From contig JBGAON010000001.1 of NCBI GenBank assembly GCA_044221725.1, positions 672,001 to 736,000 on the forward strand: 64,000 bases of DNA, read 5' to 3'. Shown here one piece after another: positions 39,373 through 61,153 of the stretch. Origin of the DNA: Elusimicrobiota bacterium. Lineage in GTDB: Bacteria; Elusimicrobiota; Elusimicrobia; F11. A program made the position numbers and the translations under genes. A model generated the notes under the pieces. The model worked only from the letters and a program-made list of their open reading frames with translations. It was not told the DNA's origin and did no database searches. Position 1 is the first letter of the stretch, and each line of letters starts with the position of its first letter.

Positions 39373-41595
39373 ATGAAGAAAGCTCTCGTTGCCATCGTTT
39401 CTGTCGTGTTTTCGTCGACGTCCGCACTCTTTGCCGCATCGCTGGTCGATGCGGTCAATCCTCTCATCGGCACCGACTCCACCTTTGAACTGTCCAACGG
39501 GAACACGTTGCCACTCGTAGCGCTTCCGTGGGCGATGGCTTCGTGGACACCCCAAACCACCGACGCGCGTTGGATTTACCGGTACAAACACAACACGGTT
39601 CAAGGAATTCGGCTCACGCACCAACCGAGCCCTTGGATTGGCGACTACGGACAATTCTGTTTGATGCCGATGGTAGGGACATTGGAGATGAATACGAAGC
39701 GACGCGCGCAGAAATTCGAGCACGCGAACGAACGTATTCGTCCTTACGGATATCACCTCGAACTGCCGACACAGAAAATCACAGTCGAACTCGCGCCTAC
39801 GATGCGCGGAGGAAAATTTCGTTTCTCATTTCCGACGTCCGAACAATCTTACGTGGTTCTCGATGTGCCGGGTCCGAATTCCTACGTGTGCGTGATACCC
39901 GAGCAAAATAAGATTGTGGGGTTTTCGAGCGCCAAAGAAGCGGGGGCGCCAAAGAATTTCGCGAATTATTTTGTGATTGCGTTCGACCGGCCGTTCCTTT
40001 CGTTCGGAACCACGGCGGCACGGCAACAGCGCTCGTTCGAACGCGAACGTCGCGGTGAAAATCTCGGTGCGTTTGTTCAGTTCCGAACCGAAAAATCTCA
40101 GGCGGTCGATGTCAGCGTTGCCACCTCGTTTATCAGCCTGTCGCAAGCAGAGGAAAATCTTGCACGCGAGATCGGCAAAAAAACGTTCGATACCATTCAG
40201 TCCGAAGCAAAACAGGTGTGGGAAACACAGCTTCGAAAAATTGAAATTGAAGGCGCAACGAACGATCAGTTGACGGTTTTTTACACAGCGTTTTACCGAG
40301 CCCTTTTGTTCCCGCACACATTTCACGAATTAAATTCGGATGGGCATGAGCGCCATTACAGTCCGTACGACGGCAAAGTCCATTCGGGTGTGCTCTACAC
40401 AGACAACGGCTTCTGGGATACGTTCCGTGCGGTTTTTCCATTCTTTACCGTGTTGTTTCCAACGCAAGACGGCGAAATCATTCAAGGTTTCGTGAACACG
40501 TTCAAAGAAGGCGGTTGGTTTCCGCAGTGGCCCAGCCCGGGTTACCGCGATTGCATGATCGGTTCGCATTCGGATTCGATTGTCGCCGACGCTTTTGTGA
40601 AAGGCATTCGCAACTTCGACGTTGCTGCGGCCTACGAAGGTTCGGTGAAAAACGGTCGCGAGCAAAGTCGCAAAGGCCAGTTCGGCCGCAAGTCGCTCAA
40701 ATATTTGCGCGATTTGGGCTACATTCCTTGCGATCGACGCGATCAGGCCACGTCGCGCACGCTCGAGTATGCGTACGACGATTTTTGTTTGAGCACATTC
40801 GCGGCGGCGCGCGGTAAGAAAGAAGACGAAGCGGAATTTGCGAAAGGCGCGCGCGCGTACAAAAATGTTTTTAATCCGGCGACGGGTTTTATGCAGGGAC
40901 GCAAGGAAGACGGATCGTGGCGTGAACCGTTCGACCAATTCGAATGGGGGGAGCCGTACACCGAAGGCAACGCTTGGCATTATCTTTGGTTTGTGCCGCA
41001 CGATGTCGGAGGTCTGATTGACTTGCTGGGCGGCAAGCGCGCCTTCGCTGAGAAGTTGGACAAACTTTTCGCGCTGCCGGCAACAATCAATGTGGGTTCG
41101 TACCATGAAACCACACACGACATGCGCGAAATGCGCAAGGCTGGCATGGGGCAATATCATCACGGCAACGAACCCGTTCATCATCTCGCCTACCTGTACA
41201 ACTGGGCCGACGAGCCTTGGAAAACGCAGGCGTTGGTTCGAAAAATTCTCACGCGACTTTATTCGGCGAAACCCGATGGATTGTGCGGCGACGAAGACAC
41301 CGGACAAATGTCGGCGTGGTATCTTTTTTCCGCGATGGGCTTCTATCCGGTGTGTCCGGGAAAGCCCGAATATTCGTTGGGCAGCCCGTTGTTTCGAAAG
41401 GTGGTCCTTCACCTCGAAAACAACAAAATATTTACGATTGAATCGCCGCGTAATAGCGCGCATAATTTGTATGTGAAGACGATTCAGTTAAATGGGCAGG
41501 TCATAAAGGATTTTCGGTTGCGTCACAGCGATATCGTGGCGGGTGGAACATTGCGATTTGAGATGGTGGCAGAGCCGGAACATCGCTTGAAATGA
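39373..41595 (+). CDS. Glycoside hydrolase family 92 (alpha-1,2-mannosidase-like), secreted
   Basis: Signal peptide; VNPLIGT, THQPSPWIGDYG, WDTFRA, SRTLEYAYDD, GNEP, GDEDTGQMSAW, MGFYPV. Confidence 0.93.
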   Translation: MKKALVAIVSVVFSSTSALFAASLVDAVNPLIGTDSTFELSNGNTLPLVALPWAMASWTPQTTDARWIYRYKHNTVQGIRLTHQPSPWIGDYGQFCLMPMVGTLEMNTKRRAQKFEHANERIRPYGYHLELPTQKITVELAPTMRGGKFRFSFPTSEQSYVVLDVPGPNSYVCVIPEQNKIVGFSSAKEAGAPKNFANYFVIAFDRPFLSFGTTAARQQRSFERERRGENLGAFVQFRTEKSQAVDVSVATSFISLSQAEENLAREIGKKTFDTIQSEAKQVWETQLRKIEIEGATNDQLTVFYTAFYRALLFPHTFHELNSDGHERHYSPYDGKVHSGVLYTDNGFWDTFRAVFPFFTVLFPTQDGEIIQGFVNTFKEGGWFPQWPSPGYRDCMIGSHSDSIVADAFVKGIRNFDVAAAYEGSVKNGREQSRKGQFGRKSLKYLRDLGYIPCDRRDQATSRTLEYAYDDFCLSTFAAARGKKEDEAEFAKGARAYKNVFNPATGFMQGRKEDGSWREPFDQFEWGEPYTEGNAWHYLWFVPHDVGGLIDLLGGKRAFAEKLDKLFALPATINVGSYHETTHDMREMRKAGMGQYHHGNEPVHHLAYLYNWADEPWKTQALVRKILTRLYSAKPDGLCGDEDTGQMSAWYLFSAMGFYPVCPGKPEYSLGSPLFRKVVLHLENNKIFTIESPRNSAHNLYVKTIQLNGQVIKDFRLRHSDIVAGGTLRFEMVAEPEHRLK

Positions 41596-43058
41596 TTTTT
41601 ACGTCGCTGCAGTATGTTGTTTTCTTTCCGATCGTTGCCGTAATTTATTTCCTTCTGCCCTACCGATTCCGTTGGTTGCACTTGCTCATCGCCAGCTGCG
41701 TTTTCTACATGGCGTTTATTCCGGCCTACATTCTGATTCTGTTCGGAATTATTCTTGTTGATTATTACACGGCCATTGCCATGGAAAAATCAACGCGTTC
41801 CTCGGTCCGTCTTTTGTTCTTTCTTGCCAGTTGCACCGCCAATATTGGCGTGTTGTGCGTTTTTAAATATTTCAATTTCATTAACGCGAATCTCGCGGCG
41901 CTCTTTGGGCTCGTGGATTTGCCGTACCATGTTCCGATGTTGAAATGGGCTTTGCCGATTGGATTGTCGTTTCATGTTTTTCAGTCGCTCAGTTACACGG
42001 CCGATGTTTATTACGGCTATCAACCGGCTGAAAAACGTTTGGGGTATTACGCACTCTACGTGATGTTCTTTCCGCAACTTGTCGCCGGTCCGATTGAGCG
42101 GCCCGCCCATTTGTTGCCACAACTGCACGCGGAACACAATTTTGATTTTGAGCGGCTCAAAAAGGGCGGCTTTCTGATTCTTGTCGGACTTCTAAAGAAA
42201 ATTGTCGTGGCGGACCGCCTTGGCGTGCTCGTGGACACGGTTTATCAAACACCCTCTGGCGCGAACGGCATCGCGCTGCTGATGGCGACCTTCTTTTTTG
42301 CATTCCAAATTTACGCGGATTTTTCTGCGTATACGAATATCGCTCGTGGATCGGCGCTCATTCTCGGCATTGATCTCATGGAGAATTTTGACTACCCGTT
42401 CTTTTCCGCGTCGATTCGAGAGTTCTGGCGCCGTTGGCACATTTCGCTCTCCAATTGGCTAGGCGATTACGTGTTTGTTCCATTGTGCGTGTCGATAAAA
42501 AAGCCGAAGCCTTGGAAACAATACGTCGCTTTGCTCGCTACATTTTTCATCAGCGGATTGTGGCATGGTGCGAACTGGACATTCGTTTTGTTTGGTCTCA
42601 CACACGGTATCGCTTATGTGATTGAAACGATTTGGGAGCGCTGGCGTCAGTCATGGGAGAACATTCCGTTCTTGAACCGTTTGCCGGAGGCGCCGCACGC
42701 GCTGCAAGTCTTCACCACATTTTCGATTTGCATGATTGGTTGGGTGTTTTTCCGTTCTCCTTCATTGGCCGTCGCCTCGCAGGTGTTTCACCGCATTGGT
42801 TCGTCGCTCGTCCATTTTTCTTTTGCGGATGTGGAATCGGCGATCGCGGCTTTCCCGTCGCGGATTGATCTCGTCTGCGGAATCTTTTTTATTCTCTCGC
42901 TGCTCGTTCTTGAAATGAGAGATCAGCGGGTGCCCGTCAGCGACTGGATTTTCAAACAGCCGGAATTTACCCAATGGGCGGTCGGTTACAGCCTGCTTTC
43001 GTTGTTAATTATTTTCGGTCGCTTTCAAGCGGCTCAGTTCATTTACTTTCAATTCTAA
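41592..43058 (+). CDS. MBOAT family O-acyltransferase (AlgI/DltB-like)
   Basis: LPIGLSFHVFQ, FFPQLVAGPIER, QIYADFS, FWRRWHISLS, GLWHGANW, FIYFQF end. Confidence 0.95.
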   Translation: MIFTSLQYVVFFPIVAVIYFLLPYRFRWLHLLIASCVFYMAFIPAYILILFGIILVDYYTAIAMEKSTRSSVRLLFFLASCTANIGVLCVFKYFNFINANLAALFGLVDLPYHVPMLKWALPIGLSFHVFQSLSYTADVYYGYQPAEKRLGYYALYVMFFPQLVAGPIERPAHLLPQLHAEHNFDFERLKKGGFLILVGLLKKIVVADRLGVLVDTVYQTPSGANGIALLMATFFFAFQIYADFSAYTNIARGSALILGIDLMENFDYPFFSASIREFWRRWHISLSNWLGDYVFVPLCVSIKKPKPWKQYVALLATFFISGLWHGANWTFVLFGLTHGIAYVIETIWERWRQSWENIPFLNRLPEAPHALQVFTTFSICMIGWVFFRSPSLAVASQVFHRIGSSLVHFSFADVESAIAAFPSRIDLVCGIFFILSLLVLEMRDQRVPVSDWIFKQPEFTQWAVGYSLLSLLIIFGRFQAAQFIYFQF

Positions 43059-43477
43059 TGGTGATGAAACAGATCAAAATTGAAGTCGGTGCGGTGGCGG
43101 AACTACCATTCGTGGTTTCCGAACAGGACCTCGATGCCTTCGCCCATCTCAGCGGCGATGCCAATCCGCTCCATTGCAACGACGCGTACGCCCGGTCGCA
43201 CGGTTTCCGGTCGCGCGTGGTGCACGGCGCACGAATCGTCGCGCACATTTCGAAAATGCTCGGCATGACGCTTCCGGGAAACGGATGGATCTGGCACAGC
43301 CTCAATATTCGGTTCCGCGCCCCGCTTTACATCGGTGACGAAGCGATACTTACTGGAAAAATTATTTACGAGCAGGAAGCGTTGGAAATCGTGCGCATGG
43401 AAGTGACTCTCCGCAAAGGGGATGAGGTTCTCGCCGACGGCGATGTGCAAGCCGGCCGGCTGAGCAACAAATCATGA
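43058..43477 (+). CDS. MaoC-family (hotdog-fold) dehydratase
   Basis: FAHLSGDANPLH, VVHG, FRAPLYIGD. Confidence 0.9.
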   Translation: MVMKQIKIEVGAVAELPFVVSEQDLDAFAHLSGDANPLHCNDAYARSHGFRSRVVHGARIVAHISKMLGMTLPGNGWIWHSLNIRFRAPLYIGDEAILTGKIIYEQEALEIVRMEVTLRKGDEVLADGDVQAGRLSNKS

Positions 43478-44205
43478 AGACAGTTCTTGTAACCGGGGGC
43501 AGCAGCGGTATTGGCGCGGCTCTTGCACGACGGGCCGGAAAATCGGACTGGAACGTGATTGTTGGTTATGGAAACGGAAAAGAGCGCGCCGATCAGCTTG
43601 TGTCAGAAATAAGGACGAACGGCGGCAACGCGTCGGCGCTGCCATTGGCGTTGCATGACGCCGCGCAGATGAAAGACGCGGTGACGAAAATTTCCACGCT
43701 GGTGCCACGTCTGGACGCGGTTGTCTTGTGCGCATCGCCGGCTCCGGTTCTGCAATCGTTTTTGAAAATGACGGCCGCAAACTTTAATGATCAGTTGCAC
43801 GTCAATGTTGTTTCGAACCACGCGCTTATCGTTGAGATTTGGAAAAGTTTTTTTCAAAAACAGGATGGCGGCCACGTGGTCGCCGTGCTGTCGGCGGCGA
43901 TGGAATCGCCGCCGTGGAAACACATGAGCGCGTACGTCGTTGCGAAAGCAGCGCTGCAGCAATTGTTGGAATCCGCATTAGCCGAACTTGGAGCGGATGG
44001 TTTGCGGGCGAGCGCATTTTTTCCCGACTACACCGACACGCCGATGCTGCAAGCGTGCCATCCGCTGGTTATCGAGGCGGCACGTGCATCTCGGCCGAAC
44101 GGTCGATTCTGGGATCCCGACCAAGTGGCGCAAAAAATAATGTCGGCGCTCGAAAATCCTCCAGCCGACGCGCGCCTCAGGCGTGAGTGGATGAAACTAA
44201 CATGA
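43474..44205 (+). CDS. Short-chain dehydrogenase/reductase (ketoreductase-like)
   Basis: TGGSSGIG Rossmann motif, YVVAK catalytic motif. Confidence 0.9.
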   Translation: MKTVLVTGGSSGIGAALARRAGKSDWNVIVGYGNGKERADQLVSEIRTNGGNASALPLALHDAAQMKDAVTKISTLVPRLDAVVLCASPAPVLQSFLKMTAANFNDQLHVNVVSNHALIVEIWKSFFQKQDGGHVVAVLSAAMESPPWKHMSAYVVAKAALQQLLESALAELGADGLRASAFFPDYTDTPMLQACHPLVIEAARASRPNGRFWDPDQVAQKIMSALENPPADARLRREWMKLT

Positions 44206-46016
44206 GCACCACCGCAACGTTTGCCGATTTTATTTCTCTCGCCAACCAGGATTTGGATTTTGTGGCGACGATGAAGCTTGATAACCGCTTCCAATCGTTC
44301 CTCACAGAAAAGTCGACGCACGGTTTCCCGGTTTTGCGGCTTGCCATTTTAGCGGCGGCTACCATGGATCATTTGCTGCCGGCCATTCGTGTGGGCGCGC
44401 TGCGGCGTGGAGTGGTGGTTGAATGTTATCTGGCTCCCTTTGACCAGATTCAGCAGGAATTGCTCGTCGAGACATCCGGTTGTTACGCGTTCAAGCCCGA
44501 TGTTGTGTTGGTGTCATGTGATTCGCTGAGCAAAATGCCGGAGCTGCCATTGGCCGCGTCGGAGGAGGTAATTCAAAAAACCGTGGTGGCTCTTTCGTCC
44601 GAATGGGCTCGTGCCTGGGATGTGATTCAAAACAAACTGAATGCCGTCGTTGTTCAATCGACGTTTCTCACGCCGCCTTTGCGGATGTTTGGAGAATTCG
44701 ATGCGCGTGTGCCCGCGTCGCCGTTTGCGCTCGTGCAACGTTTGAATGCGACCTTACGAGCGGAAGCGGCGAAGAAAAATGTTTTGTTGCTCGATATTGA
44801 TTCGATGGCGATGGAGCAGGGAATTGCCCAGTGGTTTGATGTTTCACTCTGGCATCATGCGAAGCAAATGATCTCGCCGGTCGCCGCGCCGCTTTTTGGC
44901 AAACGTGTTGGACAAATACTCGGTGCGGTGCGCGGCACATCGAAAAAATGTTTGGTGTTGGATTTGGATAACGTTTTGTGGGGCGGCGTGGTTGGCGATG
45001 ATGGTGTTCAAGGGCTCGTGTTCGGCCAGGGCGACGCGGTGGGCGAAGCCTTTCTCGCGTTTCAGCGTTACGTAAAACGGCTTAAAGAAGCCGGCGTGTT
45101 GTTGGCCGTGTGCAGCAAGAACGATGAATCTGTCGCCCGCGAAGTATTTGAGAAGCGTTCGGACATGCCATTAAAATTGAACGACTTCTCTATCTTTGTG
45201 GCCAATTGGAACGACAAAGCGACAAACATGGAATTCATTTCCAAGCAGTTGAACATTGGTTTGGATTCTCTGGTTTTTTTCGACGACAACCCCGCCGAAC
45301 GTGAGCTTATTCGACAGAAATTTCCGGTGATGGCAGTGCCAGAGGTGCCAGTTGATCCGTCGGGCTATGTCGATTGTCTGTCGCAAGCCGGATTTTTTGA
45401 AGCGGCCCAATTTTCTTCGGAAGATGCGAACCGATCGACGTTTTATGCGTCGAACGCACAGAGAACGGAAGCGGCCAATCAAGCGCACGACATAACGGAT
45501 TTTTTAAAAAGCTTGGAAATGGAACTCGAAATATCGCGGTTCGATGATGTTGGTGTCGCGCGCATTTCGCAGTTGATCAACAAAAGCAACCAGTACAATC
45601 TGACCACGCGCCGTTACACCGACGCCCAAGTGCGCCGGATGGTAAACGAACCGAATCTTTTAACGTACCAGGCGCGACTCAAAGACAAATTCGGTGACAA
45701 TGGAATGATCAGCGTCATCATAGCGAAGCCGTTCGACGATAAATCCCTCGTTATCGATACGTGGCTCATGAGTTGTCGCGTGCTTGGGCGGCAGGTGGAA
45801 CACAATTTGCTCAATTCGTTGGTGGCCGACGCGAAACGCGCCGGGTACAAAAAAATCATCGGCGAATATATCCCCACCGACAAAAACCACATGGTTCAGG
45901 CTTTGTACCCATCGTTTGGATTTAAAGCGATGAGCCCGAACGGTCACGCATCGCTCCTGTGGGAGTTGGATCTCGGATCGTACACGCCGTTTAAGACGTT
46001 CATCAAATCCATCTAG
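44202..46016 (+). CDS. FkbH-like HAD-IIIC glyceryl transferase/phosphatase
   Basis: KCLVLDLDNVLWGG, CSKND, FFDDNPAER, QLINKSNQYNLTT, MSCRVLGR. Confidence 0.93.
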   Translation: MSTTATFADFISLANQDLDFVATMKLDNRFQSFLTEKSTHGFPVLRLAILAAATMDHLLPAIRVGALRRGVVVECYLAPFDQIQQELLVETSGCYAFKPDVVLVSCDSLSKMPELPLAASEEVIQKTVVALSSEWARAWDVIQNKLNAVVVQSTFLTPPLRMFGEFDARVPASPFALVQRLNATLRAEAAKKNVLLLDIDSMAMEQGIAQWFDVSLWHHAKQMISPVAAPLFGKRVGQILGAVRGTSKKCLVLDLDNVLWGGVVGDDGVQGLVFGQGDAVGEAFLAFQRYVKRLKEAGVLLAVCSKNDESVAREVFEKRSDMPLKLNDFSIFVANWNDKATNMEFISKQLNIGLDSLVFFDDNPAERELIRQKFPVMAVPEVPVDPSGYVDCLSQAGFFEAAQFSSEDANRSTFYASNAQRTEAANQAHDITDFLKSLEMELEISRFDDVGVARISQLINKSNQYNLTTRRYTDAQVRRMVNEPNLLTYQARLKDKFGDNGMISVIIAKPFDDKSLVIDTWLMSCRVLGRQVEHNLLNSLVADAKRAGYKKIIGEYIPTDKNHMVQALYPSFGFKAMSPNGHASLLWELDLGSYTPFKTFIKSI

Positions 46017-46026
46017 AGAGGATGCC

Positions 46027-46287
46027 ATGGAAAATATTTCGCGCGAAGAAGTGAAAAACAGTTTGACGGAAATTTTTCGGAACGTATTTGATAACGACGC
46101 GATCACGCTGCACGATGAAATGACCGCGAAAGACGTCAAACGCTGGGATTCGCTGAATCACATCAATCTCATCGTCGCCACCGAGCAGAAATTCAAAGTG
46201 AAATTCATCACCGCGGAAGTCATTCGATTAAAAAATGTCGGCGGGTTCATCGATATGATCCTGCAGAAGCTGGCCGCGAAAAAATGA
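46027..46287 (+). CDS. Acyl carrier protein
   Basis: WDSLNH phosphopantetheine-attachment motif; RBS GAGG. Confidence 0.92.
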   Translation: MENISREEVKNSLTEIFRNVFDNDAITLHDEMTAKDVKRWDSLNHINLIVATEQKFKVKFITAEVIRLKNVGGFIDMILQKLAAKK

Positions 46288-47432
46288 TGGCTCTATTGCC
46301 AATGGTCCGTGACATAATCAAACTCGGATTGTTGTGCGTTTTGCTGGTGCTTCCTCTTGAGCTGCGTTTGCGCGTGTTCCAGTCGTCGCCATACATCGTG
46401 AAAGGACAGAAGGTCATTCTTCCCGCGAACAAGACGTACGTCTACGTAACGCACAATTCGAAAAAGCTCGACCCGGTTATTTATGTAAAGAAAAACGCGC
46501 TCGGATTCCGTGGGCCGGAGCGCCCACAAAACTTTCACGACTATTGTTCGATTATTTTTATGGGCGGGAGTTCGTTGGCGGCCGATAACTTGACTGAAGG
46601 GAAAACGTGGATCGATGATCTCAGCCGCATGTTTTCGAGCGATTTCACAAACGTTTGGATTAACAATGCCGGTTTCATGGGGCATTCGACCGTCGCTCAC
46701 CTCACATTGCTCGCGGATTACGTCGTGAATATTAAACCCGATATCGTGGTCTTCTTCGTCGGTGAGAACGAAATAAGTTTGATTCGCCAAATTGATGCCG
46801 ATGAAAACATTGTGCGCGGCACCTGGCACACGTCGGGCGTTCGGTCGTTTCTGTTGTCGATCATGCGGAATATTGACTCCGTCAATCTCGCGGTGAACCT
46901 GTACCAAACGTACGCGCGCCACGCGCGGCCGGGCGCCTATCGGGAATTGGATTTTCGCGCGGACAAAAAAATTGCGATTTCGGCGGAAGAGCGGCAAAAG
47001 CGCGTCCGCGATTACGAGCAAACAATTCTTCCAGTCGCGATGGCGCGCGTTCAAAAGCTGGTCGACATTTGTCGAGCGAACGGAATTCAGCCGGTGTTTC
47101 TTACGTTCACGGCGCTTTACAACACCGACATCGATCCCGAAACGGGCGAGCGAATTTCCGACTTTGAAGTCGACACAAACCGCAACGCGGAATTGTCACG
47201 CGAGCTCATGGGTGTGATCAATGCGCGCATTCGCGGGTTACGCGATCAAGGCGTGGTCGTTATCGATGTCGACAAGAAAATGCCGAAGAGCTCGCGCTAC
47301 TTTTCGGATTATTTCCATTTCACAAACGACGGCGCCACCGAGATGGCAAAGGCAATTTATCCGGAACTGAAGGCGGTCGTTGAAAAATATTCAGTGGTAA
47401 GAAAGCGGGCAGGAAATAATAAGGAAAGTTAG
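46284..47432 (+). CDS. Membrane-anchored SGNH/GDSL-fold protein
   Basis: N-terminal TM, NALGFRG, MGGSS, NNAG, GENE, DYFH. Confidence 0.85.
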   Translation: MMALLPMVRDIIKLGLLCVLLVLPLELRLRVFQSSPYIVKGQKVILPANKTYVYVTHNSKKLDPVIYVKKNALGFRGPERPQNFHDYCSIIFMGGSSLAADNLTEGKTWIDDLSRMFSSDFTNVWINNAGFMGHSTVAHLTLLADYVVNIKPDIVVFFVGENEISLIRQIDADENIVRGTWHTSGVRSFLLSIMRNIDSVNLAVNLYQTYARHARPGAYRELDFRADKKIAISAEERQKRVRDYEQTILPVAMARVQKLVDICRANGIQPVFLTFTALYNTDIDPETGERISDFEVDTNRNAELSRELMGVINARIRGLRDQGVVVIDVDKKMPKSSRYFSDYFHFTNDGATEMAKAIYPELKAVVEKYSVVRKRAGNNKES

Positions 47433-47447
47433 CCGAGGATCGGGATC

Positions 47448-47528
47448 CAGCCTTCGCTCTGCGAGCTACGGCCGGCAAGCGAACCTAAATGCGAAGGCTG
47501 TCCACCGTAGCCGTCAGGCGTAGGTGGA
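47448..47528. repeat. REP-like structured palindrome (nested inverted repeats, possible pseudoknot)
   Basis: cagccttcgc(47448)/gcgaaggctg(47491); tccacc(47501)/ggtgga(47523); gctacgg(47465)/ccgtagc(47505). Confidence 0.75.
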
Positions 47529-47576
47529 GACTCTTGTATAATCCATTTCCCTTCAATAAATCCCCGGGATGCGTTC

Positions 47577-47813
47577 ATGTATGTTTATTTGCTTAGAAGT
47601 TTGTCCTCTCCAGATCAAAGTTACGTTGGTTTAACCAGAAACCTGAGGCGTCGATTTGCAGAGCATCAGTCTGGGAAGACTTTCCACACAGATAAATTTC
47701 GACCTTGGAAGATCAGTTTCGCGATATGGTTTGATGATCCTGTCAAAGCAAGCAGGTTTGAGAGATATTTAAAAACAGGATCCGGTTGTGCTTTCCGAAA
47801 GAGGCATTTATAA
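47577..47813 (+). CDS. Small stand-alone GIY-YIG nuclease
   Basis: YVYLL...SYVG.T.NL.RR..EH..G....T....PW...A..FE..LK.GSG pattern. Confidence 0.9.
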   Translation: MYVYLLRSLSSPDQSYVGLTRNLRRRFAEHQSGKTFHTDKFRPWKISFAIWFDDPVKASRFERYLKTGSGCAFRKRHL

Positions 47814-47816
47814 GTT

Positions 47817-47858
47817 AGCCGAGGATCGGGATCGAACCGACGACCTGCCGCTTACGAA
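47817..47858 (-). repeat. 3' half of native tRNA-Thr(CGT); att junction with core TTACGAA at 47852-47858
   Basis: Identical to 56535-56576; identity ends exactly at the anticodon loop. Confidence 0.92.
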
Positions 47859-48077
47859 TATCGAGGGATATTTTAACTCATCGGATTGAAAATATTGATA
47901 ATTCAATATGTTTCAATGTTTCCCTGATTTTCTTGATTCCCTCAGACTTCAAAATTCTCCCGAAAGAACCCGCAAAATGTCGTGATTCATCCCAAACCGG
48001 CAAGAATTAATACTACATAACGACTTCAAAAGGAATTTCGCAGACTTCGAAATATTTCGAGGACTCCCACTTTGGAC

Positions 48078-49118
48078 TTATATCAGAGTGTCTATGCGGT
48101 TCAAGGTGCCTTGCAGGTCCTGTTGGGAGAGATGTCCATACGTCCCTTCCGTCACTTCTACCGATGAATGTCCAACCAGCTTAGAAACCTTGTAGATCGG
48201 CTCTCCTGCAGCTAGAAGCCTTTGAATAAACGTATGCCGTAACGAATGGAATGTCACATTAGGGTATCCCAAGTTACGGGTAATGTCAGAGAACCAATCT
48301 GAAACTGTCCAATGCGTTGTATCACCTAGAACAAAATCGTCCGCCTTCTTTCCTTCCATTTGTTCTCGGATAAACGATTTCAAGTTGGGAGACATTGGAA
48401 CGTGTCTGGATCGTCCGTTCTTCGTTTCAGGAAGGAAGATCGTGTTTGAATGGAGGGAAACATCCCTTGCCTTGATATGAGCCACTTCCCCAAGTCTCAT
48501 TCCTGTATGCAAAGCAACATAATAGAACGGCCATAGCTTGTCATGCTTGATGACTTCACCCCGAATAATCTTCTCTTCGTCAGGCCCAATAAACCGTGGC
48601 TTATTGCGAGGTAGCCTCGGCATAGACACCTTTGCAGCAGGATTCCGCCCATTGTATTTGTCGTGCTTGATTAAGGCGTTTATCATCGCTTTTAGGATGG
48701 AATGGTAATGGTTAATCGTCTGTGCTGAATAATTCTTCTTTGTCCGTTTGCTGATCTGATTGGATAGGTGAGTTCGTAAGTCTCTAACGTCATCTGCCGT
48801 GATCTCCCGGATTAGTTTTCCTCGTCCGAAGAAGTTCATGATTCCCGTTAGCATCAGCCTATCGTCATTGTGATCTCGTTTGTGGGGAGTAATTTGCTTC
48901 CAATACCATTCGCAACCCTCCTCAAACGTGATGTTATGGTTGGCACCGTTATTAATGAGATCTGGATAAGTCTCGGCCTTGATGGCTTCATCCTTCTTAG
49001 CTGCTTCCGCATCCAAAGCCTGCTGTCTCGTCCGAAAGCCGGATTTGTAATGGTTTGTTCCCTTTCTCATGAATTCGTAATGCCACAGTCCTGATTGTTT
49101 GTCTTGTTTAACGCTCAT
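48078..49118 (-). CDS. Tyrosine recombinase/integrase
   Basis: HTGMRLGE (R), TKNG (K), FHSLRH (HxxR), VGH, TY catalytic residues; N-terminal arm-binding-like domain; GGAGG RBS. Confidence 0.95.
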   Translation of the reverse strand: MSVKQDKQSGLWHYEFMRKGTNHYKSGFRTRQQALDAEAAKKDEAIKAETYPDLINNGANHNITFEEGCEWYWKQITPHKRDHNDDRLMLTGIMNFFGRGKLIREITADDVRDLRTHLSNQISKRTKKNYSAQTINHYHSILKAMINALIKHDKYNGRNPAAKVSMPRLPRNKPRFIGPDEEKIIRGEVIKHDKLWPFYYVALHTGMRLGEVAHIKARDVSLHSNTIFLPETKNGRSRHVPMSPNLKSFIREQMEGKKADDFVLGDTTHWTVSDWFSDITRNLGYPNVTFHSLRHTFIQRLLAAGEPIYKVSKLVGHSSVEVTEGTYGHLSQQDLQGTLNRIDTLI

Positions 49119-49247
49119 ATTAATTTCCTCCTATAGAGAGTCGTCACAATAGTTATTCACAATCTTGGGACGTTCATTACTCTTTATATGGGAAATCATG
49201 ATTTCTATTTACAATGACAAGGATTTCAATCGTTATCGTCTGGATAA

Positions 49248-49285
49248 AAAAATACCCTTCAACTACAAAAATGAAGGGTATTTTT
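49248..49285. terminator. Bidirectional intrinsic terminator
   Basis: aaaaatacccttca-N10-tgaagggtattttt. Confidence 0.8.
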
Positions 49286-49300
49286 CCCAGGCTAGAGGTA

Positions 49301-49663
49301 TTACTCTGGACTTTTAGGTTGTAGTGAAGAGATGTCGAGTACTTTTGTGAATTGTGGTTTACGACGATCCACTACAACTACGACTTTAACGTAGTTCCCA
49401 ATTACAAGCTTTGGATCAAGTTCCTCTTGGATTTGACTTGGGTCAACATTCATGGCTGTTAACCAGTCATAGAGTTTTGATGAGTTTTGAAGGCTGGCTG
49501 GTACGAAGCCACTAACTCTATGTTCTGCGAATTCCCCGGTTACAATTTTGAATACAAACCTAAGCGATAATCCGTATTCTGATGAGTGTTGGATAAGGTC
49601 TACAACTTTGGCTGTATACATCCCCGGCTGAACGACTTCTGGTGTTGTGCTATTTCTTTCCAT
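49301..49663 (-). CDS. DUF669-like/phage OB-fold putative ssDNA-binding protein
   Basis: PGMYTAKVVD...FVFKIVTGEF...LYDWL.A...VIGNYVKVVV pattern; AAGGA RBS. Confidence 0.55.
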   Translation of the reverse strand: MERNSTTPEVVQPGMYTAKVVDLIQHSSEYGLSLRFVFKIVTGEFAEHRVSGFVPASLQNSSKLYDWLTAMNVDPSQIQEELDPKLVIGNYVKVVVVVDRRKPQFTKVLDISSLQPKSPE

Positions 49664-49899
49664 TTTTTTATTCCTTTCAATGAGCAATTTTGCGACATGG
49701 CATACTGCGCCATCTAGAATTATTCAGGAACGGCTGAAATCCATTCGATAAAAATGAGAATTCAAATTTGTTCTAGAAATCAATGCGTTTTCAATGGGAT
49801 GTAATAATTCAGCATATAGGTAGGAGACTACTAAGGTCTTCTGATCCCCAGAATAGTCATCAAAATTCTAGGGGCAATTTTCAATCGCGGAGGACTTAA

Positions 49900-50703
49900 A
49901 TGTTTTACCTTGAGAATAAGTATTTAGATAATAATCTGTCTTTAAAGCTAAGAATCATTAAACAGCCCAGAATTAAATCCTATATCAAAGGTAAAACATT
50001 TTCGGCTCCTGCTCCTGACGGAAAGTGTTCAGATTGTCCCAAGACCGAATCTTGTAGTTGGCACCGAAAGAAAGCCTATGACAGAAACTCTCCTTTATTG
50101 TGCAACTCTTGCTATCAAAGAATCTTTCGTCAGTCTGGGCACATTAAGCCAACTAGGAACTCTCAGGCCTATAACAGGGCCTATTACAGAAACCATAAAT
50201 GGCGCTATTTCGACTATTCAACTCCAGATGGATACTTAAGACACCTATATAACTCTTACCTGAAGCGGACTTTCTCGAAGGATCTTAAAATCCCTGAAGA
50301 CAGATTCGTTCAGACAATGAAAAAAGACCGGACATTCATAGACATGTATTTGGAGTGGTCAGACTCTCAATTTAATCCTCTGATGCAACCTCAAATTCGA
50401 CGTATTAGTTTTAAGGGGTCTTTGGCTATCGGGGATCTAACTTGGAGGCGGAAAAAAGATGTCGATGAGGAAAGGGTTAGAAAAAAGGAGCTTTTTGCTC
50501 AATATGTTCAATATCTAATCAAGCTAAGAAAAGACCATTCAGAGACAGAAATCTTCGACAGCATCAAAACTAATGGCAGTAAATTCTCAGGCAGGAAGTT
50601 TAATCGTACCCTGGTTGTAAAAGAATTTCAGGCACAAATAAAAAAGCAACTTGAGCTAGGACAATTGTTGGATTACCAAGGCTATCTGTACCCATCAAAT
50701 TAA
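49900..50703 (+). CDS. Hypothetical basic protein with Zn finger and degenerate HNH-like segment
   Basis: GGAGG RBS; CSDC...CNSC; FIDMYLEW...PQIRRISFKG...DLTW. Confidence 0.55.
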   Translation: MFYLENKYLDNNLSLKLRIIKQPRIKSYIKGKTFSAPAPDGKCSDCPKTESCSWHRKKAYDRNSPLLCNSCYQRIFRQSGHIKPTRNSQAYNRAYYRNHKWRYFDYSTPDGYLRHLYNSYLKRTFSKDLKIPEDRFVQTMKKDRTFIDMYLEWSDSQFNPLMQPQIRRISFKGSLAIGDLTWRRKKDVDEERVRKKELFAQYVQYLIKLRKDHSETEIFDSIKTNGSKFSGRKFNRTLVVKEFQAQIKKQLELGQLLDYQGYLYPSN

Positions 50704-50881
50704 TCTGTTTACTACGGAATAAGTTTTGGAATCCTATGTGGAAAGCTCTAGGTTGTCTTTCCCGTTCATCGTAATAAGTACAGGAATAGGCCAACAAGGT
50801 TATTCAATTATCTGATTCTTCCTACTGTTTACCGCTGATTCCGACTGTTAACGTCTTCGGAGAATCAACGTAACACTCTCT

Positions 50882-51070
50882 ATGAAGAATGCTTTTGTTC
50901 GGCAGGTCTATTATCTGATGTTCGAGCAAACGCTTTATGGCCCATACGATTCAATTCAAGATATCGACAAGCGTTACCAGGAATTGGACACGGATGGACG
51001 AGAAAAGAAAAACGTCGTGATTGTTACCCACCTAAACATCCCATTCCTCAAAGACTCATCCCTTAATTAA
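50882..51070 (+). CDS. Small hypothetical protein
   Basis: 62-aa ATG ORF in otherwise empty AT-rich space. Confidence 0.4.
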   Translation: MKNAFVRQVYYLMFEQTLYGPYDSIQDIDKRYQELDTDGREKKNVVIVTHLNIPFLKDSSLN

Positions 51071-51181
51071 TTGCCTTTATGATCAGATCCCTACTCGGTC
51101 AGCAATTATCTATGGGTTGGGTTCGAAACATCGTTTAAATCCGAAATATGAAGCGATAGAAACCAATCTAAGGATGGATTC

Positions 51182-51841
51182 TCAGTAGATTTTCTTGAGT
51201 TTGTGATTTTTGAAGAAAACTATCCGTTTTTCAAAAGTCCGCTTAGCGCATACTTTGACGGATTCCATTCGATCCTTCATAAGCCGTTTCAGGATTGCTT
51301 TTGGACAATTCCCATTCCTAGCTACTCCTCTACGAACAATCGCTTTTCCATCTTCCGCCAATTCAGAAAGCCTTTTTTCAGGAATCCAAAGGTTCATACC
51401 CGCATAGGATCGAACAAGATCATTTTTATCTCGGCTTAGTTTAAGAATTACAGCCTTTGGACTTCTTGGATTAATGGCTACTTCTGCCCGAACATAACAA
51501 TCTGGATCGGTGGAAAGCTTTTCGAGAAGCGAAGTATTTGCATTTGGATGGCGAGCAATAGCGACTCTCGTCTGATCCATGTAACTGTCTTCCAGTTCAT
51601 CTCTGATAGCCTTAAGCGTATCGGAATCCGTATTCTTGTTATAGGCCAGGAATTTCCTGTCGATAATGCTTGGACTAATGAGAAGCCTTTGGATAGCAGA
51701 CTTGGGAAGAGACTTATTTCGCAAGGCCGCAATTCGTACTTTCCAGCTTGGATGGAACACAAGGCGTTCAAGAATTAGAGAATCGGTCTCGGTATCTTTA
51801 GCTAGGCGAACAGCTATGTTTATCTTGGCAGTCTGATCCAT
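51182..51841 (-). CDS. HEAT/LRV-repeat protein
   Basis: Repeated L..L..D....VR..VA.NP units. Confidence 0.8.
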   Translation of the reverse strand: MDQTAKINIAVRLAKDTETDSLILERLVFHPSWKVRIAALRNKSLPKSAIQRLLISPSIIDRKFLAYNKNTDSDTLKAIRDELEDSYMDQTRVAIARHPNANTSLLEKLSTDPDCYVRAEVAINPRSPKAVILKLSRDKNDLVRSYAGMNLWIPEKRLSELAEDGKAIVRRGVARNGNCPKAILKRLMKDRMESVKVCAKRTFEKRIVFFKNHKLKKIY

Positions 51842-51889
51842 GAATTAAATACTTCATTCATGGAATTTGTTTGAAAGTAGTTTGAGAAG

Positions 51890-52246
51890 TTAAGCGGCTT
51901 TGGGAAGTTTCTTAACTACATCTAGGAGGGCTTTGTAATCCTCATATGGAACAGCGATGCTTTTGCTCGATCCAGAGGTAGGGGGTGGATTGGTAACTGT
52001 AGGTTTTGATAACGAAAAGCTCATATGATCAGGATTTACACAGTGTCGATTTTCACAGGTCCGATAAAGTTTTTGGCCTTGAGCCAGAGGCTCCTTTCCC
52101 CAAGCCTGCCAAACAGCTCTATTGGCTGCCTCTGAGCCAATAATTCCGTAATCTAGTTCATCATAGGCACCATCCCATAGCCAACATGGCCCAGGTGCTG
52201 TGGACTGTCTTATTTTTGATTGCAAATTTTTCTGAGAATGAGGCAT
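51890..52246 (-). CDS. HNH (His-Cys box/HNH_3-like) endonuclease homolog, probably inactive
   Basis: CWLWDG...YG...ANRAVW...LYRTCENRHCVNPDH; GGAGG RBS. Confidence 0.7.
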   Translation of the reverse strand: MPHSQKNLQSKIRQSTAPGPCWLWDGAYDELDYGIIGSEAANRAVWQAWGKEPLAQGQKLYRTCENRHCVNPDHMSFSLSKPTVTNPPPTSGSSKSIAVPYEDYKALLDVVKKLPKAA

Positions 52247-52425
52247 CGGTCCCTCCGTAACTTTGTCTATTGAGCATAAAGGGTCTCACCGAAATTTCAA
52301 TCAAAAAAAATAAAAAAAATAAGAAACGAATTGAAATCGTGGACTTTTCAACTCATACTCACTTAGCTGTGGTTTTGCCAGAAGCTGTTCGTTTTGGGAT
52401 GGGGTTCCACTCAAAGTAAAGGGAA

Positions 52426-53271
52426 ATGGAGAAACTTTTTAATGGTCCAAAAAATTACGTGGGTTTCTATGATCTCATGGTCAGAATAAGACTGTTGCTA
52501 ATTCCATCTCTTATTGGCCTTTTGTTTAGTGGATGTGCAGGACTGCCTATAAGAAATAGTTCCGATGCTAGAGGTGTTCTTGGGGTTATTACCAAAGTAG
52601 ATAAAAATAAATTTTATGTCGTGAAGGTTTTTGAAAAATCTGCAGCAGATAATATGGGATTGAGAATCGGTGATGTGATCATTTCTTTCAATGGAAGAGA
52701 AATAATGAACCGAGATGATCGAATGGATTACGTCGATTACATCGCTGGTTCGCCGAATAAACCAATTGAACTTGTTGTTAAGCGCAATGGGTCTTTGTCA
52801 ACTTTAAGCGGTATTTTAGGTGGAATTCGGGTCGAGAAAGAGGATCAGGTATTTGATGTGATCTCTAGGTTAGTTTATATCGGCGATAATGTTTCCGTAG
52901 CGTTTGTGATAGATGATATGCGTTGCCCGATATGTACGGGATTCAATGTTAAAGAATGGAAAGAAGGTGTGAAAACAGATCTTTTAAGCAAAACGGAGTC
53001 AGCGTATCTCTCTGTGCATAAAGGCAATAAGAATTTCAGAATCGTTGACAGGAATAAAATTGAGAGATTATTGGCTGAAATGAATTTTCAAATGACTGGG
53101 GCAGTTTCACCTGAACAGGTAAAACAAATTGGGAAAATGTCTGGAGCGTCGCATATTGGATTTATCAGTTTTTCCAGAATGGGATCGCCCAATTCGCCAC
53201 AAGACTTGGTTGTTGTAAGGCTTTTGGATGTTGAAACCGGAGATGTTATTGCATCCCAGAGATGGGATTGA
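52426..53271 (+). CDS. Lipoprotein with PDZ domain and CsgG/HfaB-like C-terminal domain
   Basis: Lipobox LFSGC; KSAADNMGLRIGDVII PDZ; FRIVDR...IGKMSGA...RLLDVETG. Confidence 0.75.
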   Translation: MEKLFNGPKNYVGFYDLMVRIRLLLIPSLIGLLFSGCAGLPIRNSSDARGVLGVITKVDKNKFYVVKVFEKSAADNMGLRIGDVIISFNGREIMNRDDRMDYVDYIAGSPNKPIELVVKRNGSLSTLSGILGGIRVEKEDQVFDVISRLVYIGDNVSVAFVIDDMRCPICTGFNVKEWKEGVKTDLLSKTESAYLSVHKGNKNFRIVDRNKIERLLAEMNFQMTGAVSPEQVKQIGKMSGASHIGFISFSRMGSPNSPQDLVVVRLLDVETGDVIASQRWD

Positions 53272-53273
53272 TA

Positions 53274-53453
53274 ATGGAACTATCCAATAACGATCAGAAA
53301 TTGCTATTGCAAGTAAAAGAATTTCTTAAGAATAATCCCATTCCCCAACCTGCATTTCCAGCTCCTAATCGTGATCGACTTGCAAACGAAGCTATTGAGT
53401 TACTTGATAAGGCATATGAGTTGATAAATAATCAGGTCAATTCTCAATCGTAA
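53274..53453 (+). CDS. Small hypothetical protein
   Basis: ATG 2 nt after upstream stop. Confidence 0.45.
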   Translation: MELSNNDQKLLLQVKEFLKNNPIPQPAFPAPNRDRLANEAIELLDKAYELINNQVNSQS

Positions 53454-53685
53454 TCATTTCCAAATTCAAGGCGCTAATCCGATGCAGTTTTTTACCCCCT
53501 CGTGCAATGTAACGAGCTCATGCGGCTGATCAGTTTTGCGATTTAATTGGCCTTTTTGGCGTACTCTTTGGGCTTGAATAGGAATCGTTTTAATTGTGTT
53601 TAGATTGTCGAATGATTGTCACAGGAAAATCACTTAATGCCCTTAGGCTAAGGGGGAAAGACAGGATGCATGAAGGAGGGCATTA

Positions 53686-53862
53686 ATGAGAAAACTGCTC
53701 GTTTTTTGTTTAAGTATTTACTCAATGCTTATGTTGTCAGGTTGTAATCGTCAAATGCTGGCATCAGTTTTAAGGGGTGTAGGAAATGGGATGGAAGAAT
53801 CCAGCCGGAAGATGTCATGCGACGCTGATCCCAATTGCATTAATGTAAATGTTCGCAACTAA
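53686..53862 (+). CDS. 58-aa putative lipoprotein (below ORF-track cutoff)
   Basis: AAGGAGG RBS; MRKLLVFCLSIYSMLMLSGC lipobox; translated by hand. Confidence 0.65.
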   Translation: MRKLLVFCLSIYSMLMLSGCNRQMLASVLRGVGNGMEESSRKMSCDADPNCINVNVRN

Positions 53863-53927
53863 GATCTGCTTGTCTTCTCTCCATGTCTCCAATTGATGAA
53901 TTTCCTCATTAGACCTTTGGAGGATGT

Positions 53928-54302
53928 ATGTTAATGCTTCAGGTCGCTGGTGGAATTCTCCTCGCATTTGCCATCCTGTGGATTATCAATTTTGTTGTTC
54001 AAAATAAGACGCGTGGTAGGTTAGTCGACCAACGATATTCGTTTTTAAATCAAGCAATACTAAACGAAGCGTCTAAAGTTCTTATTGGTAAGAGCGACAG
54101 CGAACAGAAGGATGCTGGAGAGTTTCTGAAAAGAGTATTTGAGGATCGAAACAATGCGCGTATAGCTGACCAACTTGGAATGCATGGGACTGATAGTATG
54201 GCCAATATGACAGACGACGAATTTAGGAAGTATGTTGAAAAAATTTCAGTTGGTGTGGCTTCGTTGGTTGTTGCTAAAAAGTATGCATGGCCTCCGAGCT
54301 AG
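53928..54302 (+). CDS. Hypothetical protein with N-terminal TM helix
   Basis: GGAGG RBS, hydrophobic N-terminus. Confidence 0.65.
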   Translation: MLMLQVAGGILLAFAILWIINFVVQNKTRGRLVDQRYSFLNQAILNEASKVLIGKSDSEQKDAGEFLKRVFEDRNNARIADQLGMHGTDSMANMTDDEFRKYVEKISVGVASLVVAKKYAWPPS

Positions 54303-54646
54303 GCCTAGTGACAAAAGTTGATAAGATTTTTTGGGAGATCTCATCTCCCTCTTAAGGAGGACATATGTTGAAACTCATTTTGAGGGATGCTCGTTTCCGC
54401 TTGACGCTACCAAAGTGCGACCCTTCGCTATCTCGCTGACAGGCGAGACGTGGAGATAAGTTGCATGGCGATGCCTAGCGGGAGATAACCTGAGAAATCA
54501 GGGAAAGCGGTATCCCCTGGGTCTGTCAACCTGGGACAAGGTATTGCCGAGTCTCCCCTTTAATGCTGATTTATTCCTGCCAAGAGGTTAACTCGCCACA
54601 AATTTAGTCTGCTAGTTAGCACTGCCTACTTCATTTTCAATAAAAC

Positions 54647-54692
54647 AAAAGCCCCCTAGATAAGTCTAAGACCTAAATAGGGGGCTTTTTTT
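54647..54692. terminator. Bidirectional intrinsic terminator
   Basis: aaaagcccccta...tagggggcttttt between convergent units. Confidence 0.8.
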
Positions 54693-54948
54693 ATTCTTTA
54701 GATGGGAAACGAATGCAAACTTGGGAATTGATAACGGCAAGTTCTAATTCTTTGTTGATAGCCATTCCAAGTGTTACATAGTTTATGAGGATTTCTGAGG
54801 CCCATCGGCGAAGCACTTCTATTTCTTTTTCGCCCACAGGGTAATGTTTTTCACTTTCCTTGAGATTATTCACTAACGAAGTGAACTCTTCAGAGGTTAA
54901 GTTCGAAAGGCCAGAAATATACTCTGGGCTAAACGATGTTCTTGTCAT
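54691..54948 (-). CDS. Hypothetical protein
   Basis: AAGGAG RBS, 85-aa ORF. Confidence 0.6.
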   Translation of the reverse strand: MTRTSFSPEYISGLSNLTSEEFTSLVNNLKESEKHYPVGEKEIEVLRRWASEILINYVTLGMAINKELELAVINSQVCIRFPSKE

Positions 54949-55122
54949 TTTATTCTCCTTTTAAAGATCAAATTAGGGCATTGAATGCCCCACAAATGAT
55001 TCAAGAAACGGAGATTTTCATTAGATACGAAACAGGCTGATTTTTAGATGTGTTTTTAAGCGCAGTTTTTTGGGAGGAATTTAGAGAGTGTAAGCCGATT
55101 CCTCGGCAGAAGACTAGGGAAA

Positions 55123-55392
55123 CTAATTCGTTCGATTATTAAAAACTTCTTTAAATGGCCGATAGTGTTTCAATACCTTGAGAATGTTTTCAGGGGAAAT
55201 TACTTCAACGGCCATAATGCCGTAACCTCTATGGTCAATGAAATTTACTGAGCCATCAGAGTGCATGATGCACATGACATCATCTATCACAACAGAAGAA
55301 AGAGCCTTCTCGACCCATTTCTCGATGATGTCCATTCCCTCATCCATTTTGACTTTCTCAAGTGCTTTGGCAAGTTCGACTGCTTTGGTCAT
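55123..55392 (-). CDS. Hypothetical protein translationally adjacent to Shedu
   Basis: ATG directly follows the Shedu TAA stop. Confidence 0.6.
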   Translation of the reverse strand: MTKAVELAKALEKVKMDEGMDIIEKWVEKALSSVVIDDVMCIMHSDGSVNFIDHRGYGIMAVEVISPENILKVLKHYRPFKEVFNNRTN

Positions 55393-56514: not shown

Positions 56515-56534
56515 TAATATCCTCTTAAAGTGTA

Positions 56535-56607
56535 AGCCGAGGATCGGGATCGAACCGACGACCTGCCGCTTACGAAGCGGCTGCTCTACCAGCTGAGCTA
56601 CCTCGGC
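56535..56607 (-). tRNA. tRNA-Thr(CGT), complete copy located inside the element
   Basis: Reverse complement folds as cloverleaf: gccgagg/cctcggc, gccgc-ttCGTaa-gcggc. Confidence 0.96.
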
Positions 56608-56773: not shown

Positions 56774-56811
56774 TTACGAAGCGGCTGCTCTACCAGCTGA
56801 GCTACCTCGGC
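56774..56811 (-). repeat. 5' half of native tRNA-Thr(CGT); att junction with core at 56774-56780
   Basis: Identical to 56570-56607; joined to 47817-47858 through the 7-bp overlap it rebuilds a 73-nt tRNA. Confidence 0.92.
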
Positions 56812-60837: not shown

Positions 60838-60987
60838 AGCGGTTACCAATAGTTATGTGAACAAGAGTCCACATGCGATTTATATGAGAGTCCAGTTAGA
60901 GTCCAGCAAACTAACGCGAAAGATGCTTACGATTGCTTGTACGAATGACAATGTTATGACAATACGGCACTTTACGACGTTTAAATA

Positions 60988-61062
60988 CGGAGTCGACGGG
61001 ATTTGAACCCGCGGTCTCTGCCTTGACAGGGCAGCGTGTTAACCGGGCTACACCACGACTCC
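60988..61062 (-). tRNA. tRNA-Asp(GTC)
   Basis: Cloverleaf on minus strand: ggagtcg/cgactcc, ctgcc-ctGTCaa-ggcag. Confidence 0.97.
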
Positions 61063-61153
61063 ACGGGTGACATTGGGACAAGCACCCTACCAAAACACTG
61101 CGAAATTGACAAATTCTTTACCTTGGATCACAAATTTTGTTTAGTTCCGCGCG

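Follow-up and report, generated by a model that had tools for sequence, protein, structure and literature searches.

A minimal GIY-YIG nuclease and hairpin leader inserted in tRNA-Thr: an atypical member of a family found at tRNA and tmRNA gene ends

Among the closest described systems are the Ssn nucleases, which in the accessible text of Chenal et al. 2025 (PMC11893778) are defined by cd10448, SRM hairpins and single-strand cutting; SsnA binds its hairpin and cuts adjacent single-stranded DNA, and the authors raise a mobile-element origin. Another is the phage T4/T6 nuclease SegB, which, according to the available part of PMC2330249, recognises a T-loop motif, prefers cutting just after the CCA and has a C-terminal DNA-binding part, NUMOD3; the available part of PMC13096335 adds that SegB breaks drive segment amplification. 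REPs, with their Y1 transposases and guide tetranucleotides (PMC3733652 and PMC6006769, as far as their accessible text goes), are a third point of comparison. Stand-alone bacterial Slx1-like domains are treated in the accessible portion of PMC1564403 without a link to tRNA genes.

The element described here lies in an Elusimicrobiota genome, within the 64-kb stretch of DNA that was analysed (the window), and consists of a hairpin leader and a small GIY-YIG gene enclosed by a 22-bp direct repeat (Table 1). The original prediction, made from the letters of the window, was that it may be a minimal mobile unit aimed at tRNA genes. We find that nuclease and hairpin form a widespread, multi-phylum family located at tRNA and tmRNA 3' ends, of which the window copy is an atypical member, being inverted and in the T-loop. 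A full-text literature search, whose coverage left subscription journals and supplements largely outside, found no description of the family, which is therefore apparently undescribed.

Table 1. Features of the element and of the adjacent island end (window positions).
Feature	Position	Strand	Description
Left 22-bp copy	47426..47447	-	displaced tRNA-Thr 3' end (57-73) plus 5 flank bases; contains the stop codon of the upstream SGNH hydrolase
Hairpin unit A	47447..47475	-	6-bp outer stem, 3x3 purine-rich internal loop, 4-bp inner stem, 3-nt loop (minus-strand reading)
Conserved tail beside unit A	47476..47480	+	in the search pattern that detects gene-less copies in relatives
Third arm	47491..47500	+	leader's first 10 bases (47448-47457) copied inverted; makes a 10-bp stem
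Hairpin unit B	47501..47528	+	design as unit A, plus strand
Spacer	47529..47576	+	AT-richer; TATAAT hexamer at 47537-47542
Nuclease gene	47577..47813	+	78-aa single-domain SLX1-like GIY-YIG; TAA overlaps the right repeat copy
Right 22-bp copy	47812..47833	-	runs on into the tRNA-Thr 3' half
tRNA-Thr(CGT) 3' half	47817..47858	-	42-bp att copy of the 8.7-kb island; not a working gene
Tyrosine integrase of the island	48078..49118	-	begins 245 bp away; outside the element
Complete tRNA-Thr(CGT)	56535..56607	-	island's far end

The two copies of the repeat are identical across all 22 bp and, read on the minus strand, comprise positions 57-73 of tRNA-Thr(CGT), the 17 nt of its 3' end, plus five flanking non-tRNA bases. 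Because the repeat starts at tRNA position 57, the break falls in the T-loop. This is the only exact repeat of at least 18 bp in the window besides two att-type repeats of tRNA-Thr (42 bp and 38 bp). The 364 bp between the copies hold a GC-rich leader, a spacer and the nuclease ORF, which is the only ORF there; the integrase nearby belongs to the 42-bp att pair. On all these points (composition of the repeat, breakpoint, overlap of the stop codon with the repeat, and lack of a transposase or recombinase inside) the original prediction was borne out. The module is inserted within the tRNA gene in the orientation opposite to tRNA-Thr, and the last base of the left copy is also the first C of the leader's CCA start (47447-47449), the plus-strand start of unit A being the CCA junction typical of the family. 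GC content is 63% in the leader (47447-47528) and 40.5% in the nuclease gene, against ~52% for the genome, and is host-like in the DNA to the left of the element. A promoter scan found no full sigma-70 promoter for the nuclease gene. The same DNA occurs in contigs from two other studies: one (X5) crosses the left junction, and the other (X6) covers the gene and extends 30 bases into the right copy, one base under our bridging criterion. A further contig (X1), possibly the source, covers the whole element.

The leader is built from two opposite-pointing copies of one hairpin unit together with an inverted copy of its first ten bases. The unit has a 6-bp stem, a 3x3 loop (G-T/A-A facing G-A-A) and a short inner stem, and units A and B display the purine-rich loop on opposite strands; the outer stem of unit A is identical to that of a relative (L120) which lies after a tRNA-Leu CCA. 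Of the three pairings originally proposed, the 10-bp stem (47448-47457 with 47491-47500) and the 6-bp stem (47501-47528) are both present in the predicted fold of the plus-strand leader (z -2.7 as DNA and -3.4 as RNA; minus strand as RNA, -1.75). The 7-bp crossing pair (47465-47471 with 47505-47511) also exists in the sequence, because the leader is two inverted copies of one unit; as a by-product of that design it needs no pseudoknot, and that reading was dropped.

The unit is a recurrent companion of the gene, occurring within 330 bases upstream in 67 of 89 loci on the gene strand and in 56 of 89 on the other strand (shuffled controls, 2/1,780 and 1/1,780, respectively). Its stems covary in homologs, as the original prediction would have it: at three stem positions left free by the search pattern, 52 of 66 cells were paired, against a permutation mean of 24.4 (0/10,000), a count that excludes three likely chance matches (L316-L318). 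These cells hold 22 distinct combinations, with four pair types at one position, and for the third arm 50 of 75 were paired where 27.4 were expected. Wobble pairs (six G-T versus five A-C on one strand, six versus two on the other) did not distinguish DNA from RNA or one strand from the other, the finder having required pairing so that pair counts are circular. Leader stems include the tRNA's own last bases, CA facing TG in 30 of 48 loci and CG facing CG in 2, and the third arm pairs back onto these bases, 5-7 deep, in 6 of the 48, in counts made with a finder that often chose the wrong arm and scored 15 of the 48 loci at zero. Such pairing may reflect templating, inheritance at one tRNA, selection against changes in the discriminator base or target reading by pairing. 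At gathering level Rfam found only tRNAs in the window, and on the leaders of eight loci it gave no match except a sub-threshold one to sX4, driven by the tRNA.

GIY-YIG is the sole Pfam domain of the 78-aa protein (E 2e-13), and no NCBIfam family scored above its cut-off. The predicted structure is one compact domain (pLDDT 96.5) whose top structural matches are HIGLE and Slx1, followed by UPF0213 proteins; the minimal fold and catalytic residues are those of Slx1/HIGLE and UPF0213 (YhbQ) (PDB 7wme, 4xm5, 1zg2), although eukaryotic Slx1 has extra domains and partners. The protein search recovered 548 relatives (42-137 aa; highest identity 76%), and in an alignment of the query with 99 relatives Y16, G18, H30 and E62 are invariant and R26 nearly so. 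A median dN/dS of 0.14 (range 0.06-0.45; 58 non-independent pairs from 27 loci) indicates that the relatives are under purifying selection. In a 65-protein tree, which rests on few columns and has weak inner forks, the window protein falls inside a leader-bearing clade (support 97/86), with YhbQ-type proteins and two neighbours of Neisseria-type NTS repeats outside it. The window nuclease is the genome's sole member of this clade among three GIY-YIG matches overall. The plasmid collection that was searched held no match, and viral contigs held one relative.

Ssn with its NTS/SRM repeats, in the accessible account, resembles this family in pairing a small single-domain GIY-YIG gene with sequence-specific hairpin repeats that are also scattered without the gene. 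The window protein, however, belongs to a different clade and has a different hairpin, arranged as two inverted units with a 3x3 internal loop that start exactly at tRNA termini, and targeting of tRNA ends by Ssn is not reported in the accessible text of PMC11893778. The SRM motif had no match in window positions 42001-53000 and occurred within 600 bp of 1 of 96 relatives; compared with two NTS-flanked GIY-YIG proteins that served as stand-ins for SsnA, the window protein gave pairwise E values of 1e-6 and 3e-5, where the Ssn paper uses a cut-off of E < 1e-10. By analogy the window nuclease may work like Ssn, but on the SRM motif and on similarity to the stand-ins (rather than to SsnA itself) it falls outside that group.

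Separately, Neisseria-type NTS/SRM repeats do occur in this genome, at G000:C4:548582 and ~25 other sites, several exact and one right after tRNA-Arg(CCG); despite these repeats, an SsnA-like gene is not evident among the three GIY-YIG matches.

The likeness to SegB, within the accessible sources, is that of a GIY-YIG gene at tRNA genes, and SegB's cut after the CCA is where the family's leaders begin. SegB uses its C-terminal part to bind DNA, cuts double-stranded DNA and homes by two-sided homology between phages, whereas the window protein is a bare domain accompanied by a hairpin leader and gene-less copies, at many tRNA types and in cellular genomes. The family might work in a SegB-like way, yet the window protein, ending at 78 aa with no C-terminal DNA-binding module, is not of the SegB type.

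Relatives came from three sets (31 loci in genomes, 80 of 560 in metagenomes, and those in the genome's class), giving 94 after dereplication, 85 of them with at least 150 bases upstream. In 58 of the 94 the leader core follows the T-arm of a same-strand tRNA or tmRNA; an encoded CCA precedes it in 31 and the discriminator base in 27, and the leader starts 2-7 bases from one or the other; one of these loci (L078) was counted via a false T-arm yet truly follows a tRNA-Ala CCA, and a few more qualify by eye. Among 30 further loci, 28 from another phylum, 20 have a same-strand tRNA or tmRNA within 700 bases upstream and none has one on the opposite strand, while four more show a tRNA 3' half by eye. 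The predicted tie of nuclease and hairpin to tRNA genes is supported for this family, and it sets the family apart from YhbQ-type genes, a separate clade in which none of 14 distant loci had a tRNA. One end of the module is precise, namely the CC(A) start of the leader, which abuts tRNA or tmRNA gene ends on either strand; the other end is ragged and lies shortly past the stop codon.

Two features named in the original prediction do not extend to the family. The usual site is not the T-loop; leaders sit at the 3' end when on the tRNA's strand and at the 5' end when on the opposite one. Nor is target-site duplication the rule: none of 60 gene-bearing relatives with a defined leader start has an exact duplicate of its target (best 12 of 14 and 11 of 14), and the 30 further loci show no target duplication, their only repeats being second leader copies. 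A compact transposon whose staggered cuts always duplicate ~22 bp of target would account for the exact 22-bp repeats of the window copy and of one gene-less leader (L339, below), and for the five non-tRNA bases inside the window repeat. This explanation is highly improbable, given the counts above and intragenic cases that differ in repeat length and breakpoint; the five bases, moreover, may be microhomology, 3 of 85 relatives having the same six bases at the stop codon as the window copy. A fixed 22-bp duplication as a family rule is largely refuted. The element also lacks the terminal inverted repeats and regular target-site duplication of a classical insertion sequence, no inverted repeat between its two ends being present among the 25 longest listed.

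Degenerate duplications suspected in a soil clade (L104, L110, L113, L125) were not above the null, except in L125. Three of these loci (L104, L110, L125), which are close gene-bearing kin, have common DNA past the stop codon and differing DNA upstream of the leader junction, a pattern that suggests rearrangements ending at that junction. In a sister clade of the same class, tRNA-fragment repeats often flank the gene, on the tRNA's strand. At L135 (1290-1430) a different hairpin insert follows tRNA-Asp and terminates in a 15-bp copy of the T-loop-to-end stretch, after which come leader and gene.

Most leader copies are without a nuclease gene. The leader pattern gave 68 matches in 15 of 121 genomes of the class; in this genome gene-less leaders lie after the tmRNA and tRNA-Leu 3' ends, and others sit antisense at the 5' ends of tmRNA, tRNA-Cys and two tRNA-Pro genes. 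We examined 63 distinct matches in the relatives and this genome, finding 10 after 3' ends (nine by script, plus L352), 12 antisense at 5' ends and six, the window copy included, inside tRNA genes with a partial tRNA repeat; the remainder are one tandem second copy, three likely chance matches and 31 elsewhere, mostly single hairpins. From the 12 antisense and six intragenic copies it follows that landing on the opposite strand is routine and that repeats go with intragenic sites. Besides the window copy, partial tRNA repeats were seen in only five of the 63 matches, all gene-less intragenic leaders. L339, from the same genus, is inverted in tRNA-Thr(TGT), and its exact 22-bp repeat stops at the discriminator base; L336 and L314 are inverted in tRNA-Arg, the former in the T-loop register of the window copy with a diverged left piece and the latter with a rebuilt T-arm unlike the displaced one (both by eye); L354 has a 14-bp exact repeat of a tRNA-Tyr 5' end; and L306 lies, as judged by eye, in the D-arm. 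The best of 378 swapped controls for such repeats scored 13. Breakpoints and repeat lengths vary among these cases, all four T-arm junctions end in C or CC, and the window copy is the only gene-bearing copy seen that is both inverted and duplicated. A pattern scan of 301 genomes for T-arm junctions returned only the window and two non-tRNA sites, and a scan of viral contigs only tRNAs or chance matches among 80 loci of at least 120.

Side by side with these, a tRNA-Asp gene in a related genome (L309, G002:C1:90614-91137) has a gene-bearing module at its 3' end and an antisense gene-less leader at its 5' end; the orthologous tRNA-Asp of the window (60987-61063) has neither module nor leader.

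The strand of the copies bears on whether the leader acts as RNA, co-transcribed with the tRNA and serving the nuclease as a guide or insertion as a template. Almost all gene-bearing copies share the tRNA's strand and so would be co-transcribed, RNA folding is stronger for the plus strand than for the minus, and the third arm can reach back onto the tRNA's last bases as noted above. We nonetheless consider an RNA role very unlikely: the two units present their loops on opposite strands, gene-less copies are often antisense at 5' ends, Rfam offers no match, and a search of this 94%-complete genome turned up no reverse transcriptase. The precise end, moreover, is the 5' end, the reverse of target-primed reverse transcription, in which the precise end is the opposite one.

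The right-hand tRNA piece is an att copy of the island next door. That island (47859-56534; 8.7 kb, 41% GC) is integrated in tRNA-Thr and encodes, besides its tyrosine integrase, a leucine-rich-repeat-variant protein; several of its ORFs have no Pfam or NCBIfam match. An exact 38-bp copy of the tRNA-Thr 5' half (56774-56811) lies 166 bp upstream of the complete gene, and since related genomes G002 and G003 have a like arrangement (90-92% over ~280 bp) it is inherited. On the other side of the element, a gene cluster (41592-47432) ends in the SGNH hydrolase (a Pfam-based label); its ORFs we take, from motifs, to be membrane acyltransferase-like, dehydratase-like, short-chain dehydrogenase-like, FkbH-like and acyl-carrier-like.

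The module is a unit distinct from the island, as predicted: it lies outside the island's att copy, and its 22-bp repeat begins at a different tRNA position. In G003 a matching island end (92% over 1,186 bp) borders on another flank and lacks the module, and G002 has a complete tRNA-Thr with two 3' pieces and no module match. The search for an empty allele that the original prediction called for yielded none in 40 related genomes, where it would be unreadable because no relative has the SGNH (left) flank, and no joint skipping the element is listed in sequencing runs X1, X4, X5 and X6; depth in X4-X6 is ~2-4, at which absent cover over the integrase carries no weight.

This setting admits another history for the 22-bp copies, as att sites of a former island whose integrase crossed over in the T-loop and which shrank to 364 bp, or as the product of a donor piece already equipped with a tRNA 3' end. 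Islands integrated in tRNA genes have this layout (tRNA end, insert, T-loop-to-end copy), islands favour this tRNA as a hotspot, and the T-arm of L314 is foreign. We judge such a history quite unlikely. The left junction is the exact CCA start of the family and the right junction the exact stop codon, neither of which is expected from shrinkage; the repeats are identical, leaving little time for decay; no integrase lies between them, as one would in a tRNA-integrated island; and against an origin from the neighbouring island stand its different, 42-bp att and the G003 island end that has no module.

In the accessible sources, REP/BIME/REPIN-RAYT and IS200/IS605 systems share with the family inverted pairs of short hairpins, species-specific variants, gene-less copies that outnumber the gene and possible target reading by base pairing next to the hairpin. 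The partner here is a GIY-YIG nuclease rather than an HUH Y1 transposase, copy number is low and centred on tRNAs, and GTAG-like letters sit inside the internal loop, not at the hairpin foot, though they may yet match one GTAG family of PMC3733652. With these differences, the analogy to REP/RAYT and to homing systems drawn in the original prediction is upheld. No HUH Y1 transposase gene is adjacent to the element, the only Y1 gene of the genome being on another contig.

It is conceivable that something other than the nuclease, either a Y1/RAYT-type transposase or host recombination, mobilises the hairpin repeats, and that the nuclease is a passenger or a domesticated partner acting on them, as has been suggested for Ssn. 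GIY-YIG nucleases cleave by hydrolysis and are not known to become covalently joined to DNA, the majority of leader copies are gene-less, and the genome does have one Y1 transposase gene. We think this unlikely, however, since the Y1 gene is far from all 16 listed of 18 hairpin units (nearest ~207 kb; the other two units are weaker), and since the nuclease gene keeps company with the hairpin: besides the upstream counts given above, a related nuclease gene is present in 10 of the 12 genomes with convincing leader matches and in 10 of 109 others, although kin are not independent.

We give about an even chance to a selfish module of hairpin and nuclease that spreads by nicking and copying, without a transposase; that it is mobile at all we infer from its scattered copies. 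In this scheme the nuclease would recognise the hairpin unit in single-stranded DNA and nick tRNA genes while they are briefly single-stranded. A target strand whose 3' end is C or CC would pair with the leader start over 1-3 bases; host repair synthesis would copy the module leader-first, and the new strand would rejoin the target through short homology. At gene ends such a landing would need no duplication. For the window copy, a nick in the T-loop of the non-coding strand, with the new strand rejoined 22 bases upstream, would have rebuilt the tRNA 3' end; the C shared at 47447 and possibly the five bases of flank would be the two microhomologies. Only events that rebuild the tRNA would survive inside a functional tRNA gene. 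On the best reading, then, the 22-bp repeat would be a tRNA-rebuilding repair scar of an unusual intragenic inverted landing and not a transposase-type target duplication.

Several observations count against this reading. The T-arm of L314 was rebuilt differently from the displaced one, so its second piece has another origin than copying of the target, and 31 of the 63 leader matches are at non-tRNA sites. The 40 related genomes and four sequencing runs gave no empty allele, the window copy stands alone among gene-bearing copies seen in being inverted and duplicated, and the wobble pairs pointed to neither strand and to neither DNA nor RNA. If the module came after the island, furthermore, the target was a dead tRNA half and the survival argument falls.

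A bolder form of the nick-and-copy reading, which we hold only tentatively and think doubtful as it stands, is that these modules are an unrecognised class of autonomous mobile elements shorter than 400 bp. A bare hydrolytic nuclease of 78 residues, together with two DNA hairpins, would then suffice for one-ended copy-in at tRNA termini on either strand, the target being chosen by base pairing of the leader's internal arm with the tRNA's last bases. If base pairing does pick the target, a change of arm would change the target, and the modules would rank among the smallest insertion systems that can be retargeted.

In many bacterial genomes small SLX1-like genes are annotated without a known role; for one clade of them the tie to a defined hairpin and to tRNA termini provides a testable substrate, and it extends the Ssn idea of a tiny nuclease with a cognate hairpin to a second clade. 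The modules are also a source of tRNA fragments and palindromes at tRNA ends, which island-finding tools may misread as att sites. The rare duplicated window copy hints at the family's mode of movement, and together with the gene-less L339, L336 and L314 it records intragenic landings that constrain the cut site, the strand and the repair route.

Two further settings of the hairpin unit were seen. In this genome a single unit (G000:C3:666910-666945) takes up the whole space between tRNA-Arg(TCG) and tRNA-Leu(TAG), whose 3' ends converge there, and in a related genome (L356-L363, G010) the unit is nested in another, larger family of palindromic repeats that lies apart from tRNAs.
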